Origin: Parcubacteria group bacterium
GTDB taxonomy: Bacteria; Patescibacteriota; Minisyncoccia; 2-02-FULL-40-12; IGHO2-01-FULL-4-A
Reading direction: 5' to 3'
Length of the DNA stretch: 52,908 nt
Assembly (NCBI GenBank): GCA_043821485.1
Contig: JBDRCU010000010.1
Location: 1-52,908, forward strand
Under the pieces are notes generated by a model. It had not been told where the DNA came from. It was given only the letters and a program-made list of their open reading frames with translations, and made no database searches. Positions 13,302 to 42,368 of the stretch are shown piece by piece (positions within the stretch are counted from its first letter, which is position 1; the number at the start of each line of letters is the position of its first letter). Both the position numbers and the translations under genes were made by a program.

Positions 13302-14061
13302 AAATAAAAAAGAGCTGGAGCTCATGGCTGAAAGTGGGAGTATACTTGCAGGCATAATAAAGGAGTTGAGAAATATTGCAAAACCCGGAATGACAACAAA
13401 AGAATTAGATAGGCTCGCTTCCGAGCTTGTTTTGTTTCATGAAGTCAAACCCGCATTCTTAAAATATAATGGATTCCCTTCAACAGTTTGCCTTTCTGTA
13501 AACGAAGAACTTGTACATGGAGTTCCTTCAGAAAAAGTATTGAAAGAAGGAGATCTATTGAGTATTGATATGGGGGTTATCTATAAAGAATTTTATTCAG
13601 ATAGCGCAACTACATTTCCAGTGCTTGGAGTAATGTCATACGATGAATGGAAGGAAAAGAATCCCGAAGCACACAAGTTAATTTCTGTTACAGAAGAATC
13701 TTTGTACGCGGGTATTAAACAAGCTATAGTCGGCAATCACATAGGTGATATTTCCACGGCAGTGCAAACCATCGTCGAGCGCAATAACTTCAGTATTATT
13801 CGTGACCTTGTGGGTCATGGCATAGGAAGAGACTTGCACGAAGATCCACCTGTTCCGAATTTCAGCAAAGCAGATAAAGGCCCAGAGCTTCAATCCGGCA
13901 TGGTAATAGCAATCGAGCCAATGGTTGCAATAGGCGATAGGCATATAGAAGTCATGTCAGATGGTTTTACATATAAAATGAAAGACAATTCCTTGTCAGC
14001 TCATTTTGAGCATACAGTAGCTATCACAGAAAAAGGTCCGAAGATATTGACGAAAGCTTAG
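13288..14061 (+). CDS. map: Methionine aminopeptidase type I
   Basis: SVNEELVHGVP, IDMG, GHGIG...HEDP, AIEPM, SAHFEHT. Confidence 0.97.
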   Translation: MIQIKNKKELELMAESGSILAGIIKELRNIAKPGMTTKELDRLASELVLFHEVKPAFLKYNGFPSTVCLSVNEELVHGVPSEKVLKEGDLLSIDMGVIYKEFYSDSATTFPVLGVMSYDEWKEKNPEAHKLISVTEESLYAGIKQAIVGNHIGDISTAVQTIVERNNFSIIRDLVGHGIGRDLHEDPPVPNFSKADKGPELQSGMVIAIEPMVAIGDRHIEVMSDGFTYKMKDNSLSAHFEHTVAITEKGPKILTKA

Positions 14062-14065
14062 GGTA

Positions 14066-14241
14066 GGGGCTTTTGCGTTTTAACTCATGCGTTATATATA
14101 AATTTCGCGAGCCCAGTGTGCGAACTAAATTTTGTTCGTGCGGACTCTTCGCCGCCATCTCACAAAATTTGTTCGCACACTAGGTCCATAATAGCTTACT
14201 TAGCATAACGAGAATGCTAAACGCACAACGCAAAAGCCTCC
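14066..14241. repeat. Nested inverted-repeat element (REP/MITE-like)
   Basis: Outer arms ggggcttttgcgtt (14066-14079) / aacgcaaaagcctcc (14227-14241); inner arms cccagtgtgcgaactaaattttgt (14112-14135) / acaaaatttgttcgcacactagg (14162-14184). Confidence 0.75.
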
Positions 14242-14305
14242 ATTTTCTCGCTCATCATTTGATCAAATTATTAGAAAACCCTTTAAAATAAGGGTTTTAT
14301 TGGTA

Positions 14306-14335
14306 TTGACAAATGATAAAATAATATGGTATAAT
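14306..14335 (+). promoter_or_regulatory. Consensus sigma70 promoter
   Basis: TTGACA (14306-14311), 18-nt spacer, TGgTATAAT (-10 at 14330-14335). Confidence 0.85.
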
Positions 14336-14341
14336 ATAGTC

Positions 14342-14663
14342 ACAATTAAAATCTAGTTTAGGGTACTAGAAAGGCCGAAAGGCAAAAAGAGGAGAAAGCA
14401 ATAAAAGGCAATATGCGCTTTTTCTTCGAAAAATCACATATTGCCTTTTTAGATAGACCAGAAACACAGCAAAGAAAGATCATTAACAATTGAATAGCGT
14501 TTGCAAATAACATGACTTGTTTGCAGTCGCTAGCGCACAAATTTTAAGGTTTGTGCGTGTAGGTTATGCCCCGCGTCCGTTTTACAGACGGACATGTAGG
14601 GGACCGAATAGAGAGGATCGCGCATAGTGTGCGATTCAAATTCAAAACGATAGGAGAAGAAAA
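14342..14663 (+). ncRNA. Candidate structured RNA / long 5' leader with about seven consecutive hairpins
   Basis: Stems at 14352-14370, 14374-14383 (GAAA loop), 14403-14449, 14495-14532, 14533-14558, 14569-14602, 14616-14636. No family recognised. Confidence 0.45.
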
Positions 14664-15089
14664 ATGAAACAGAAGTGGAACGTTGTGGCTCTGAGGCGGA
14701 GACTTTCCAACCAGATATGTGTACTGCAGGGGTACTTGGTGCTCCCCCCAAGGTACACCTGGAGGATGAAGGAGGTTACCCGTCGCCTGGAAGAGGTTTG
14801 TATCTCCTCCGTGGGAGAGAAACTTCCGACCGTACAGGACGGGAGGGTCGTATTTCCGGCAGGCGAGGTGTTCATCTCGTCTAGCAGGAGGCCCAAGCAC
14901 CAGGGGTTCTTCTTGGAGCTACCGAAGGAAGTACCTCTCTACATCAATGTTCATACTAGTCCAACTTCCCCGGGAAGGGGAGATAAGGTGAGTTGGACGA
15001 CAAGCGACGGCGAAACCGGTGCCGGCATGATGATCTCCCATGAGACCATTCAGGAAGGTAGGGACGGGATCAAGGAATTGATCTTCTAG
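14664..15089 (+). CDS. Hypothetical GC-rich ORFan
   Basis: 141-aa ORF with AGGAG upstream; visibly more GC-rich than its flanks; no motif recognised. Confidence 0.55.
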   Translation: MKQKWNVVALRRRLSNQICVLQGYLVLPPRYTWRMKEVTRRLEEVCISSVGEKLPTVQDGRVVFPAGEVFISSSRRPKHQGFFLELPKEVPLYINVHTSPTSPGRGDKVSWTTSDGETGAGMMISHETIQEGRDGIKELIF

Positions 15090-15308
15090 TCATCCCATCC
15101 GGTGTCGCGCGTGGGTAGATAATACATCTTAGTTCATTCACCGGGAGACGATTTACAACAAGTAATACAACAGTCTCCCACCCACTTGAGTACTTGAAGA
15201 ATCGAGTGTTCAAGCGGGAGGTTAAGTGAATTTCACAGAGTTGGTTAGTGAGGAGTACCCTAAAAATTTTCTATTTTGACCTCACTGCCAGCTTTGTGGA
15301 ATTCATAG

Positions 15309-15340
15309 AAACTCTAGCTCATATATGCTAGAGTTTTTTT
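15309..15340 (+). terminator. Intrinsic terminator-like hairpin; overlaps a TGcTAGAGT -10-like element 6 nt before the next ATG
   Basis: aaactctagc-tcatatat-gctagagttt followed by a T run. Confidence 0.65.
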
Positions 15341-16051
15341 ATGCATCTTTCTGTCATAATTCCGGCTTTTAATGAATCCAAGCGCATTGTGGAGACTTTG
15401 CATTACATTGATACTTATCTTAAGAAACAGGACTATGACTATGAGATAATACTAGTAGACGATGGTTCTGCTGATGATACGGTTGAAGTTGTTAGAAATT
15501 TGAAAATTAAGAATCTTCGCATTATTGAGAATGAGGAGAATCGTGGCAAAGGCGTTGTTGTAAAACAGGGCATGTTAGAAGCCAAAGGCGAATTAAGGCT
15601 TTTTATGGATGCGGATAACTCAACAACGATTGATCAGATAGAAGCACTCTTGCCTCATTTGGATAAAGGCTATGATGTTGTCATTGGTTCGCGCCGTGTT
15701 TATGGAGCGCAGATTGAAATTCATCAGTCATGGATTAAAGAATTTCTTGGTAAACTCGGTAATCTTTGGATTAGATTTTGGGCAGTGTCTGGTATAAATG
15801 ATACGCAGGCTGGATTTAAACTTTTTACTGCAAAGTCTGCAAATACAATATTTGAAAGAATTACTATTGATCGTTGGGGACTTGACTTTGAAGCACTTGC
15901 AATTGCACGCAAACATAAATTTAAAATTAAAGAAGCACCAATCAAATGGTCCAACGATGAACGATCTAATGTAACAACAGGAGGATATATTAAGACACTT
16001 CTTGAAGCAGTGAAAGTTTGGTGGAATCTTTTAACAGGTAAGTATAAATAA
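15341..16051 (+). CDS. GT2 polyprenyl-phosphate glycosyltransferase (dolichyl-phosphate beta-glucosyltransferase/ALG5-like)
   Basis: SVIIPAFNE, VDDGS, NRGKG, FMDAD, DTQAGFKLF, RWGLDFE. Confidence 0.9.
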   Translation: MHLSVIIPAFNESKRIVETLHYIDTYLKKQDYDYEIILVDDGSADDTVEVVRNLKIKNLRIIENEENRGKGVVVKQGMLEAKGELRLFMDADNSTTIDQIEALLPHLDKGYDVVIGSRRVYGAQIEIHQSWIKEFLGKLGNLWIRFWAVSGINDTQAGFKLFTAKSANTIFERITIDRWGLDFEALAIARKHKFKIKEAPIKWSNDERSNVTTGGYIKTLLEAVKVWWNLLTGKYK

Positions 16052-25904: not shown

Positions 25905-25935
25905 ATCAAAAAATCGCTTAAAGCGATTTTTTGAT
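25905..25935. terminator. Bidirectional terminator between convergent rnhA and rnpB
   Basis: atcaaaaaatcgct-taa-agcgattttttgat. Confidence 0.8.
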
Positions 25936-26368
25936 CTCTTGGCACATAATAAGCCGAATTCTGTCTTTCCGTTTTTACACGGAGAGATAATCATTTATCT
26001 GGGACTTGCATTACTGCAAGCCTCGCGCGAGCTAACTTTTCGAACCTGATAATCTGATAAATCGGATCACAGGAACGCTGCTCTTGCACCAGGCGGGGTT
26101 TAGCACGCATCCATGTTGCCATGGAGCGATCTCCTTTGGAGAACTTTTCACCCGTGGTCCTCACCGCGAACGATGCGGACTCGGAATAGTCTCTGTGCCA
26201 CTTTCCCTAAGCTTTGATTAGCAACTCTTTTCTTAAGAGAAAGAGATTCCAACCTTATGCTCGGCGGCCGTTAACCGCTGCCTACTTCTGTGCATATTGC
26301 ACAGGGTGTTCGGACTTTCCTCTATATCTGCTAAAAGCAGATATAGCGATTATCTAATGTACCGAGAG
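25936..26368 (-). ncRNA. rnpB: RNase P RNA
   Basis: The - strand carries GAGGAAAGTCC near its 5' end and ACAGAATTCGGCTTA near its 3' end; termini pair as P1 (ctctcggtacat / atgtgccaagag). Ends approximate. Confidence 0.95.
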
Positions 26369-38605: not shown

Positions 38606-38676
38606 GCGGGTGTAGTACAGTGGTAGTACATTAGCTTCCCAAGCTAAAGATGAGAGTTCGATTCTCTTCACCCGCT
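38606..38676 (+). tRNA. tRNA-Gly (CCC), CCA not encoded
   Basis: Acceptor GCGGGTG/CACCCGC, anticodon arm TTAGC-TTCCCAA-GCTAA, T arm GAGAG-TTCGATT-CTCTT. Confidence 0.96.
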
Positions 38677-38853
38677 CAAAAGAAAGCATTCAGTGAATGC
38701 TGAACTGTTTTTGTTATAGGAAAAGCAAGTTAGAACCGAAATAATAGTAAGTAGTGGCGTGGGAATGAATTTTCTTGACGTACCCTGTAATTCATAGTAC
38801 GGTACTATTTAAGTTCTTTTCAATCAGAATCTGCCTCAAGGAGGGCATAAATT

Positions 38854-39339
38854 ATGTACATCGACCCTAACAGCTGGCACGCCAAGCTGTTCTTCATGTG
38901 TCTAAGCATTTGGAGCAAGTTCAAGACAGGTGACAAGAGGATTCCCCGTCGCTACGAGAGAGGAACGAACCTCTGTTTTTACGTTCGGACCATCACGGTC
39001 TGGGCACCACTCGTCATCTTACTACATCTTGCTTTCGTGGTAGCGACCGTCTGGACGTTCACCCTGTTACCCATCAGTCTGTTCGGGTTTCTGGGTTTTG
39101 CCAAGACGGGTGGCTACATCATCGTGCTCTGTCTGCTGGCTACCGGTATTGTGTACGGCATCAACCTTGCTGGTCCGAGAGTCAAGGAGGTAGGTGAGTC
39201 GATAAACCGTCGCACGCAACCTACCGTGGACAATGCTGTAGAAAAAGGATCTTCGGCAATCGAGGTCGCCGTGGAATGGTTTAAGGCTCGGAAACAGCAA
39301 ATTTGCCCCTTCATCAGTTTCCAAGGAGGTGCTTCGTGA
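38854..39339 (+). CDS. Hypothetical GC-rich membrane protein
   Basis: 161 aa, 2-3 TM segments, AGGAGG upstream. Confidence 0.75.
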   Translation: MYIDPNSWHAKLFFMCLSIWSKFKTGDKRIPRRYERGTNLCFYVRTITVWAPLVILLHLAFVVATVWTFTLLPISLFGFLGFAKTGGYIIVLCLLATGIVYGINLAGPRVKEVGESINRRTQPTVDNAVEKGSSAIEVAVEWFKARKQQICPFISFQGGAS

Positions 39340-39674
39340 GCAAGTACATCCAGAGTTGGTGGCGTCTGCTCCTGTTCACGGTGGTACTCCTGGTCATCAT
39401 CGGGTTCCAGTTCCTCATTCAGGATGAGATACTTGCTTCTCACGAGACTTGGGAAGGGACGTGTACCATCAAGACGTGGGAGTACGATAACTGGAACGGT
39501 TTTCAAGTTCGCCTTCTTTGCAACGATGAAGAGGTCGTTTTTCACGACAAAGAGGTGCTCGTCAGATTTCTCAATGTCTCGGCCGCGGTGATCCGTTGCA
39601 AGGTCGCTAAGAACAATGACGCGAACTGTGTCATCGTGGTCGCGGCCAGAAAGAGAAACGCCGAAGCCAACTAA
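39336..39674 (+). CDS. Hypothetical GC-rich exported/anchored protein with four Cys
   Basis: GTG at 39336 overlaps the upstream TGA and follows AGGAGGT; N-terminal hydrophobic helix. Confidence 0.65.
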   Translation: MSKYIQSWWRLLLFTVVLLVIIGFQFLIQDEILASHETWEGTCTIKTWEYDNWNGFQVRLLCNDEEVVFHDKEVLVRFLNVSAAVIRCKVAKNNDANCVIVVAARKRNAEAN

Positions 39675-39725
39675 TCCCCTTTGTGAGCAGTATGTGGCTG
39701 GTGGGGATACACGCCACGCACTTTC

Positions 39726-39764
39726 GTTCTGGTGACCCGCCTCACCAGAACAGACTTTTTTTTT
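39726..39764 (+). terminator. Intrinsic terminator of the GC-rich islet
   Basis: gttctggtga-cccgcc-tcaccagaac followed shortly by a 9-T run. Confidence 0.7.
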
Positions 39765-39882
39765 GAGTAATTTATTTATTGTACAATTTGATTATTTAAA
39801 GATACAAACATTATGCACTATCCTGCTCATTTTTTATTTAGGATTTGCGTAATATCTTCAAATCCTGTAGCATATAACAACT

Positions 39883-41635: not shown

Positions 41636-41735
41636 TGGACAAAGGTGGACAAATTGTGAATAAATACCGGACAAAATATTTTGTCCGGTATTTATTCATT
41701 TTGTCCGGTATTTATCCGGTGTCTGTCCGGTATTC
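41636..41735. repeat. TGTCC(GG) motif array containing a perfect 42-bp palindrome (41657-41698)
   Basis: gtggacaaa twice; tgaataaataccggacaaaat|attttgtccggtatttattca; then further ttttgtccggtatttat and tgtccggtatt copies. Confidence 0.9.
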
Positions 41736-41946
41736 CTAAACCCTTTTTAGTATATTTCGACTATCAAATATGAAACACTAAATTGCTGAATGTTGGAGAC
41801 TAGACAGCATTATATGTTTTTTGTCAATATGTAATAATAGTCACGAATCATCGTCCAAGAATGTAGTAGTATATAGGCAAGATTATCCACATTCTGCTTT
41901 GTTTACAGATGAGTTGTCTGATAGAATTCAGAGACTAAGAAGTTGT

Positions 41947-41975
41947 TTGACGTAGCGTGTCAGTTTTGCTAGTAT
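41947..41975 (+). promoter_or_regulatory. Putative promoter of the S-layer-like gene
   Basis: TTGACG-17-TAGTAT with extended TG; a second TGaTAGAAT lies at 41919-41927. Confidence 0.6.
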
Positions 41976-42076
41976 TTCTTGAATGAGAGGCCTGTTTTTG
42001 GGGTTCTTTTGGATACATAGGAAAGTTGTGTTTCGGTGCTATTTATGGAATTTATAGAAAATTCATAAATAACACT

Positions 42077-42352
42077 GGCATGCAACAGCATCCAGCCTGA
42101 ATAGCCGAATATATCTTTGGGTATTTTTGGCGACACAGGTGAGTATTATAAATAAAGAGATGCCTTGGGTCTTCCAAATTTTGTTTCTTCAGATATAAAC
42201 AGTATCTGGAAACAGAATTTGGGAGATCTAGCATTGTTATTTAAAGACTTGTACGGTCGATTGGTACATTACGTGCTAAGCGGGTCTTTCCTAAAAGAAA
42301 GTAGGAAAATTGACTTGTTATGTTCCTGGTCTTTAGACAAGGAATGTAGCAA
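42077..42352 (+). promoter_or_regulatory. Long structured 5' leader of the S-layer-like gene
   Basis: Stems including 42167-42229 (21 pairs, 4 G-U) and 42315-42352. Confidence 0.6.
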
Positions 42353-42368
42353 AAATTGATTAATAATT

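Follow-up and report, generated by a model that had tools for sequence, protein, structure and literature searches.

What kind of genetic element occupies the roughly 1 kb between positions 14306 and 15340 of contig JBDRCU010000010.1 from a Parcubacteria group bacterium (assembly GCA_043821485.1)? The stretch of DNA analysed here, referred to below as the window, comprises positions 1 to 52,908 of the forward strand of this contig and belongs to the draft genome of a small Parcubacteria bacterium (877 kb in 63 contigs, 39% GC, estimated contamination 4.4%). An earlier note, made from the sequence alone, had described in this region a TTGACA/TGnTATAAT promoter, about seven stems in 14352-14636, a 141-aa open reading frame (ORF) of foreign composition and further 3' stems ending in a terminator-like hairpin, and had proposed that these form an unrecognised large non-coding RNA (ncRNA) with an embedded ORF, an RNA-protein module or a mobile expression cassette. 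All of the described features are present. Our analysis favours, with a probability of about 0.6, the interpretation that they form a laterally acquired, self-contained, moron-like cassette carrying an ORF without relatives (an ORFan), to be expressed as an mRNA with heavily structured untranslated regions (UTRs). The grounds for this interpretation are an insertion revealed by synteny, a GC content at third codon positions (GC3) of 0.68, the coding signal of the ORF, a promoter matching the consensus at 12 of 12 positions, the spacing of the Shine-Dalgarno (SD) sequence, the terminal hairpin and the structure of the + strand, and it is the genomic context, namely the synteny between map and the glycosyltransferase (GT) gene downstream of it, that decides the question.

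The region lies at the end of the ribosomal-protein/secY/adk/map cluster, with secY, adk and map as upstream neighbours and a GT2 glycosyltransferase gene, followed by a DedA/UptA-type gene, downstream. Of the map loci that we retrieved from 24 further genomes in the family, 23 were examined. A GT gene was present 3' of map in 18 of the 23, and was not found in the retrieved DNA of the other 5, one of which spanned just 62 nt. The gap between map and GT is 4-32 nt in 10 of the 18 loci, 101 nt in 1 and 379-1056 nt in 7, while in the studied genome it is 1279 nt. Since 10 of the 18 relatives have the two genes within 4-32 nt of each other, bases 14062 to about 15325 (roughly 1.26 kb) are, as judged by gene order, an insertion between map and GT. 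The longer gaps of the relatives hold unrelated small genes that differ from locus to locus, which indicates that the slot is variable. Its occupants include a DksA/TraR zinc-finger gene at one locus (L004), a gene for a ParE toxin preceded by a 63-aa ORF at another (L010) and ORFans of 103-289 aa at the others (L013, L017, L009 and L019).

The gene within the insertion, at 14664..15089 on the + strand, is set apart from the native genes by its composition. Its GC content is 0.54 (0.51, 0.43 and 0.68 at the first, second and third codon positions), as compared with a GC3 of about 0.3 in native genes. When scored by the codon usage of 20 further ORFs from GC-rich islands in the genome, the ORF frame reaches +13.1 nats over background and the other five frames -3.4 to -54.5 nats, though the 20 ORFs were chosen for high GC3 and the test mainly shows frame-specific GC3 periodicity. 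The codon score of the ORF frame corresponds to z = 4.8 relative to shuffles, and the island codon table beats the native table by 48 nats. By these codon statistics, the ORF is protein-coding. The encoded protein is net basic, with an arginine-rich N-terminus (ALRRRL), and is predicted to be all-beta.

Signals for expression surround this ORF on both sides. A sigma-70 promoter with an extended -10 element is predicted at 14306..14335 (+), consisting of TTGACA at 14306-14311, an 18-nt spacer, TGg and TATAAT at 14330-14335. In a promoter scan it scored 12/12 consensus positions plus the TG extension, and the 877-kb genome contains 6 such perfect sites on its two strands, this one included. The spacing predicts a transcription start near 14342. 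Immediately 5' of the promoter, a terminator scanner called a hairpin (AAAACCCTT-TAAAAT-AAGGGTTTT) at 14275..14298 (+). An SD sequence, AGGAG, can be read at 14652..14656 (+), 7 nt 5' of the ATG at 14664, and is free in the predicted leader fold. At the 3' end, fold prediction places a terminal hairpin with a T-run at 15307..15340 (+), its stem spanning 15307-15338 and its T-run extending up to 15340. A simple terminator scanner called neither this hairpin nor a similar one in the leader (14403-14449), and the U-runs of both partly pair with an upstream A-run.

The 3' arm of the terminal hairpin (TGCTAGAGT, 15326-15334) also appears to be the -10 box of the probably leaderless GT gene that starts at 15341. 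In the short map-GT spacers of the relatives, a TGnTAnAAT-like box ends 6 nt before the ATG of GT (5 nt in one), as seen at loci L006, L007, L008, L012, L014, L016, L018, L021, L025 and L026; this constant position implies a conserved, probably leaderless GT mRNA. The studied genome retains the same geometry at 15326-15343, where TGCTAGAGT is followed by six T and the ATG at 15341, within the terminal hairpin of the cassette.

Much of the remaining sequence is predicted to fold. The leader of ~320 nt is predicted to form seven hairpins on the + strand (14352-14370, 14374-14383, 14403-14449, 14497-14530, 14533-14558, 14562-14605 and 14615-14637), of which the second closes on a GAAA loop. The third has 20 pairs with a U5 tract behind them and resembles an intrinsic terminator or attenuator. 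In the 3' UTR of ~250 nt, four hairpins are predicted on the same strand: those at 15143-15179, at 15181-15218 and at 15226-15306, followed by the terminal hairpin. The second and third of these contain 16 pairs with 3 G-U and 32 pairs with 5 G-U, respectively. Overall, predicted RNA structure makes up 60% of the transcription unit. Relative to dinucleotide shuffles, the leader has a folding z-score of -6.5 to -7.05 on the + strand and -4.4 on the - strand, and the 3' part -9.65 and -4.8, respectively; the ORF region (z = -1.0) shows no excess structure. Both flanks of the ORF thus fold far better on the + strand than shuffled sequence does. The earlier note had also taken the G-U deviations in the stems as a sign of selection on + strand RNA. 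This is borne out by our counts, as the hairpins of the transcribed unit contain 18 G-U pairs when the + strand is folded and 6 when the - strand is folded, which, together with the lower z-scores on the + strand, supports folding of the + strand transcript.

To place these values in context, 411 segments of 200 nt were scanned on the + strand of positions 1-41200 of the window with 15 shuffles each, giving a background mean z of -0.32 with a standard deviation of 1.56. Seven of the 11 lowest z-scores fall within 14001-15400, and the lowest of all is that of 15201-15400 (z -8.6), with RNase P RNA close behind (z -8.5). The latter, a class A RNA at 25935-26365 on the - strand (172 bits), serves as a yardstick for the scan. 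A further structured block at 14066..14240, within the insertion yet 5' of the promoter, comprises a 14-pair outer stem around a 21-bp hairpin (14112-14184) and a small hairpin. In contrast to the transcribed part, this block is strand-symmetric in folding, with minimum free energies of -65.8 (+) and -71.4 (-), and the region 14062-14305 that contains it has z-scores of -8.0 (+) and -6.5 (-).

Two kinds of sequence repetition accompany the hairpins. The 11-mer UUUAGGGUACU at 14357..14367 (+), which lies apically in the first leader hairpin, is the perfect complement of AGUACCCUAAA at 15254..15264 (+), which lies in the loop at the apex of the long 3' hairpin, and these are the sole two copies in the genome. 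By chance, a perfect 11-mer inverted match would be expected about 0.2 times anywhere in 1.28 kb; the location of both 11-mers in loops makes chance less likely, though it was counted post hoc, and the significance of the match is uncertain. In addition, the 9-mer AGTGTGCGA has 5 copies in the genome, 3 of which are in hairpin arms of the insert (14115 +, 14173 - and 14626 +), and TGTGCG occurs 6 times in the insert as compared with a genome rate of 0.25 per kb. Repeats of the AGTGTGCGA type could represent a protein-binding site or the trace of a local duplication. A palindrome related to this 9-mer, GCGCACAAA/TTTGTGCGT, is found at 14533-14558, also in hairpin arms.

These observations lend themselves to a model in which roughly 1.26 kb of foreign DNA was acquired laterally and inserted between map and the GT2 gene. 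The terminator hairpin at 14275..14298 would insulate the cassette from the upstream operon, and the consensus promoter would drive an mRNA consisting of the 320-nt leader with its seven hairpins, the accessible SD sequence and the 141-aa ORF, and ending with three long 3' hairpins and the terminal hairpin with its U-run. The hairpins would be features of the + strand transcript, most likely mRNA stabilisers and insulators, with no separate RNA gene, and the third leader hairpin may serve as an attenuator. In this model, we infer from sequence that the promoter is active, that the hairpins terminate transcription and that the ORF is translated, as well as the roles assigned to the hairpins. 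If correct, the locus would provide a clean example of how ultra-small genomes of the Candidate Phyla Radiation (CPR) acquire single orphan genes as self-contained units, at a small number of permissive slots, one of which would be the end of the ribosomal-protein cluster. Such an example would be useful for annotation and in itself unsurprising. What is unusual is that 60% of a transcription unit should consist of predicted structure as strong as that of RNase P RNA. This makes the cassette a good test case for the insulation and stabilisation of foreign genes in genomes with hardly any spare DNA, as well as a candidate attenuator or RNA-binding autoregulator. To our knowledge, no regulation has been studied experimentally in the lineage.

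Part of the cassette can be found in independent sequencing data. Two runs labelled groundwater metagenome contain small shares of the stretch, as compared over 13900-15500; regions not covered by these runs are uninformative. One, a DNA run, yields a 163-nt contig identical to 14605-14767, which spans the junction of leader and ORF. The other, a metatranscriptomic run, yields a 169-nt contig (word depth 5.2) identical to 15072-15240, which spans the junction of ORF and 3' UTR. Two internal joins of the cassette are therefore confirmed in independent runs, and the second contig, which shows neither transcript ends nor strand, suggests, though weakly, that the 3' part is present as RNA.

We searched for relatives of the RNA and of the protein at several levels. 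At gathering score, Rfam had no match in the cassette region when the whole window was searched, and at E <= 10 over 14000-15450 it returned chance-level hairpin matches only (best E 0.01, to a plastid 3'-UTR hairpin model). ARAGORN found nothing in the window but a tRNA-Gly at 38606. These searches agree with the earlier impression that the region matches no tRNA, transfer-messenger RNA (tmRNA), SRP or intron motif, and Rfam assigned it to no riboswitch family either. A DNA search of the insert had no match in 40 relatives, and in 105 genomes of the order it gave short matches only, mostly over 14252-14350, i.e. the terminator hairpin and the promoter. A protein search of the ORF against 401 genomes of the class gave chance-level matches only (E >= 0.003 per genome). 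Protein-based scans of metagenome, viral and genome contigs found no relative of the ORF, and one exact 24-nt DNA pattern had no match among metagenome contigs. In sum, no relative of the ORF or the RNA was found in Rfam, in the 105 genomes of the order, in the 401 of the class or in the three contig collections. The portions of the literature on CPR cassettes or structured RNAs of this kind that were accessible to us contain no description of such an element.

Family assignments for the 141-aa protein are equally sparse. It had no match in Pfam at E <= 10, in NCBIfam, in PHROGs (best E 0.17) or in PADLOC at E <= 10, and a word-indexed search of 5.8 billion proteins retrieved the ORF itself alone. 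A full HMMER (phmmer) search of 1.84 billion representatives returned 9 multi-PKD or Ig-repeat proteins, with E-values (2.7e-9 to 8.8e-4) that are inflated by summation over repeats. The best-matching stretch falls within residues 86-136, about half a PKD domain, for 8 of the 9 matches and is residues 24-76 for the ninth. Over residues 90-135, the protein is weakly similar to the first half of a PKD domain. The ESM Atlas had no match of 0.9 or higher for the protein.

The strength of the predicted folds raises the question of whether the RNA itself is the functional product, as a new large structured or dual-function RNA whose 5' part (about 14342-14455) and/or 3' part would be stable, the ORF being secondary. 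Folding scores equal to those of RNase P RNA in the same window and the preference for the + strand would fit such an RNA, as would the arrangement of a promoter, ~110 nt and a U5 hairpin, which resembles a small-RNA gene, the RNA-library contig that covers the 3' structured part only, and the perfect 11-nt complementarity between two apical loops. However, the last of these is expected ~0.2 times by chance, the ORF bears a clear coding signal, and the long stems of the cassette come close to perfect pairing, whereas known ornate RNAs have irregular helices. Nor do Rfam at E <= 10 or the genome searches, with promoter-region matches only across the order and none in the 40 relatives, point to a conserved RNA. 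We regard an RNA product as improbable, and a recognisable or independent large-ncRNA family is not supported; the large ncRNA with an embedded ORF proposed earlier likewise lacks support, given the frame-specific coding signal, the z-score of -1.0 over the ORF and the lack of an Rfam match even at the permissive threshold. A role for both partners is also conceivable, in that the small basic protein might bind the hairpins of its own transcript (for autoregulation, or for antitermination at the third leader hairpin), or the two might form a toxin-antitoxin or defence unit. The concentration of AGTGTGCGA in hairpin arms (3 of 5 genome copies) and of TGTGCG in the insert, the arginine-rich N-terminus, the GAAA-loop hairpin preceding a terminator-like hairpin and the ParE toxin gene in the same slot of one relative are consistent with such a module. 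On the other hand, the protein matches nothing in Pfam, NCBIfam, PHROGs or PADLOC, the RNA lacks the tandem repeats typical of type III toxin-antitoxin systems, and one copy of the AGTGTGCGA motif lies upstream of the promoter, and we judge an RNA-protein module to be unlikely.

Alternatively, the hairpins might be palindromes at the DNA level, either what is left of a mobile element's termini or recombination sites (MITE-, attC- or IS200-like) or the outcome of template-switch mutation in unconstrained foreign DNA. The length and near-perfection of the inverted repeats, the use of the map-GT slot as an insertion hot spot and the equal folding of block 14066-14240 on both strands would be expected in this case. 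What speaks against it is the strand asymmetry of the transcribed part and the failure of a DNA search to find a second copy of the insert or of any of its hairpins in its own genome. Furthermore, repeat analysis of the insert revealed no target duplication and terminal inverted repeat framing it, the ORF does not match a Y1 transposase, and no mobility genes were found for the cassette, the sole tyrosine recombinase of the genome being located on another contig. A direct repeat at the borders (AGCTTAGGGTA at 14055 and AGTTTAGGGTA at 14355) was considered and discounted, as ~0.2 such matches would arise by chance at a fixed junction. We give DNA palindromes little credence as an explanation. 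Of the mobile expression cassette proposed in the earlier note, what stands is an inserted, self-contained, foreign unit with its own promoter and terminal hairpin; the searches revealed neither mobility machinery nor a second copy. An assembly chimera or decaying, non-functional DNA might be suspected from the fragmented draft, its estimated contamination and an ORF without relatives, but the insert is bordered on either side by native, syntenic genes of the same contig, contigs from other runs match the internal junctions exactly (14605-14767 and 15072-15240), and promoter, SD sequence and ORF are intact, all of which makes this explanation very improbable indeed. A more ambitious reading, in which the locus would serve as a regulatory device centred on RNA and would belong to an as yet unrecognised Parcubacteria class of promoter-bearing cassettes, is quite unlikely. 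Under it, a AAACCCTT...AAGGGTTT hairpin followed by TTGACA-17/18-TATAAT would mark the 5' edge of cassettes in several genera, the transcript would be closed by an 11-bp loop-loop contact between 5' leader and 3' UTR, and the arginine-rich protein would bind the repeated AGUGUGCGA hairpins and thereby control read-through of the leader terminator.

The laterally acquired ORFan cassette, while favoured over these explanations, has several points against it in addition to the choice of codon-table ORFs mentioned above. No search produced a homolog of the ORF or of either UTR, and hence purifying selection and covariation are unsupported. RNA-library contigs can contain DNA, and the match of the RNA run to the cassette is one 169-nt piece. 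Models of the protein are of low confidence, both from AlphaFold2 run on the single sequence (all-beta, predicted local distance difference test (pLDDT) score 43) and from the ESM Atlas (pLDDT 0.37). The searches for a mobility gene, a target duplication or a second copy, all negative, also count against it. Finally, the leader and 3' UTR are far more elaborate than those of the other 20 cassette-like ORFs of the genome, and a plain role as stabilisers leaves this exceptional elaboration unexplained.

Among known systems, the closest parallel is provided by morons, which PMC3594210 describes as extra DNA between conserved neighbours, with deviant GC content and their own promoter and terminator. 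Like phage morons of the HK97/HK022 type, the cassette is extra DNA with one functionally unrelated gene between genes that abut in relatives, deviates in GC content (0.54 for the ORF against 0.39 for the genome, with the difference in GC3 given above) and, as far as its sequence tells, brings its own promoter and terminator. Unlike them, it is part of a bacterial chromosome and has housekeeping genes on either side, its protein reaches no better than E 0.17 in PHROGs, and its seven-hairpin leader and four-hairpin 3' UTR far exceed the needs of a moron. The cassette would thus be moron-like in its working and, since it is not in a phage, outside the moron family in the strict sense. Integron cassettes with attC sites likewise combine a small orphan gene with a long, imperfect hairpin whose folding favours one strand; the studied cassette differs from them in having its own promoter and in being a single unit rather than part of an array, no R''/R' core sites of attC were seen in it by eye against the consensus, and no integron integrase was identified in the genome, whose one tyrosine recombinase was noted above. 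Type III toxin-antitoxin (ToxIN-like) systems share the order of promoter, structured RNA, terminator-like hairpin and small protein gene. In the cassette, however, Tandem Repeats Finder reported no tandem repeats (0 rows at a minimum score of 30), the insert has no direct-repeat family longer than 24 nt, and the ORF has no ToxN-like or other defence-family match (Pfam and PADLOC, E <= 10). Large ornate ncRNAs (OLE, GOLLD, HEARO and ROOL) and dual-function RNAs resemble it as GC-rich, highly structured elements of ~1 kb in an AT-rich genome, whereas the cassette has no Rfam match, no conservation in the genomes searched and a middle part of 426 nt that is unstructured and coding. In comparison with IS200/IS605 elements, which encode a Y1 transposase of about 150 aa and occur in several copies, the cassette is single-copy in its genome and its ORF has no Pfam match.

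The best comparison within the genome is with its other GC-rich islands, which we defined by merging 400-nt windows with at least 49% GC. This gave 59 intervals, of which 46 were considered after the 13 with the lowest peaks had been dropped, and 20 regions were retrieved. Three of the 20 contain 16S rRNA, 23S rRNA or tmRNA. Of 19 island ORFs, 17 have no Pfam family (1 of these lies inside 23S rRNA and is spurious), and the remaining 2 match PKD/beta-helix and AbiGi models; GC3 is mostly 0.5-0.77. Like the studied cassette, these units place a GC3-rich orphan gene with its own SD sequence and terminator between native genes; two share the perfect TTGACA-18-TATAAT promoter and one shares the terminator-promoter module. 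They differ from it in that the flanks are less structured and no sequence is shared: neither a DNA search of the own genome nor an all-against-all protein comparison found island ORFs or sequences akin to the 141-aa ORF or its UTRs. Among the 21 cassette-like ORFs of the genome, the 141-aa ORF has the most structured flanks. For most of the other 20, the flank z-scores range from 0 to -4; the few downstream flanks that score below -5 are next to tmRNA or the rRNA operon.

The hairpin upstream of the promoter belongs to a more widespread type. Of the 105 genomes of the order, 32 have one or two hairpins of the form AAACCCTY-N3-9-RAGGGTTT, and a reversed control pattern was found in 3 genomes. 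The hairpins often have an A-rich loop, such as ATAAAAC or GAAAAT (loci L065-L094). The studied genome has just 2 of them, each 5' of a strong promoter and a GC-rich ORF. Across the order, a promoter-like sequence lies within 50 nt of the hairpin at 10 of 32 sites (5 with at most 1 mismatch), and the DNA downstream is GC-richer at 9 of 28 evaluable sites. With fractions of this size, the hairpin was dropped as a cassette signature; it mainly appears to be a frequent, lineage-typical type of terminator that is sometimes fused to a near-consensus promoter. Eight examples of the terminator-promoter module were collected, and the ORFs downstream are mostly without Pfam families.

Several individual loci of the genome deserve mention. 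The second module of terminator hairpin and strong promoter in the genome, at C37:74342-75434 (L031), precedes a 220-aa ORF with a GC3 of 0.71 and a signal-peptide-like start, located only some 300 nt 5' of the 16S rRNA gene. At C57:54425 and C57:66188 (L029 and L030), perfect TTGACA-18-TATAAT promoters that are ~82% identical to the studied one over 33-34 nt precede two GC3-rich ORFans, the first (127 aa) next to the tmRNA gene and the second of 225 aa. The window itself contains a second GC-rich cassette at 38680-39770, directly behind the tRNA-Gly (38606-38677). Its two ORFs, a membrane-like one of 161 aa and one of about 112-123 aa, overlap, and it has a strong SD sequence and a GC-rich terminator near 39728-39765; segment 39701-39900 has a z-score of -8.1. 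The largest ORF-free gap of the window, at 41636-42368 (733 nt), is AT-rich, lies upstream of a gene for a 1227-aa surface-protein-like product and has no Rfam match at gathering score. Lastly, segment 1901-2100, inside the ribosomal-protein gene cluster, reached z -5.4 in the structure scan and might be a ribosomal-protein leader or an autoregulatory structure.

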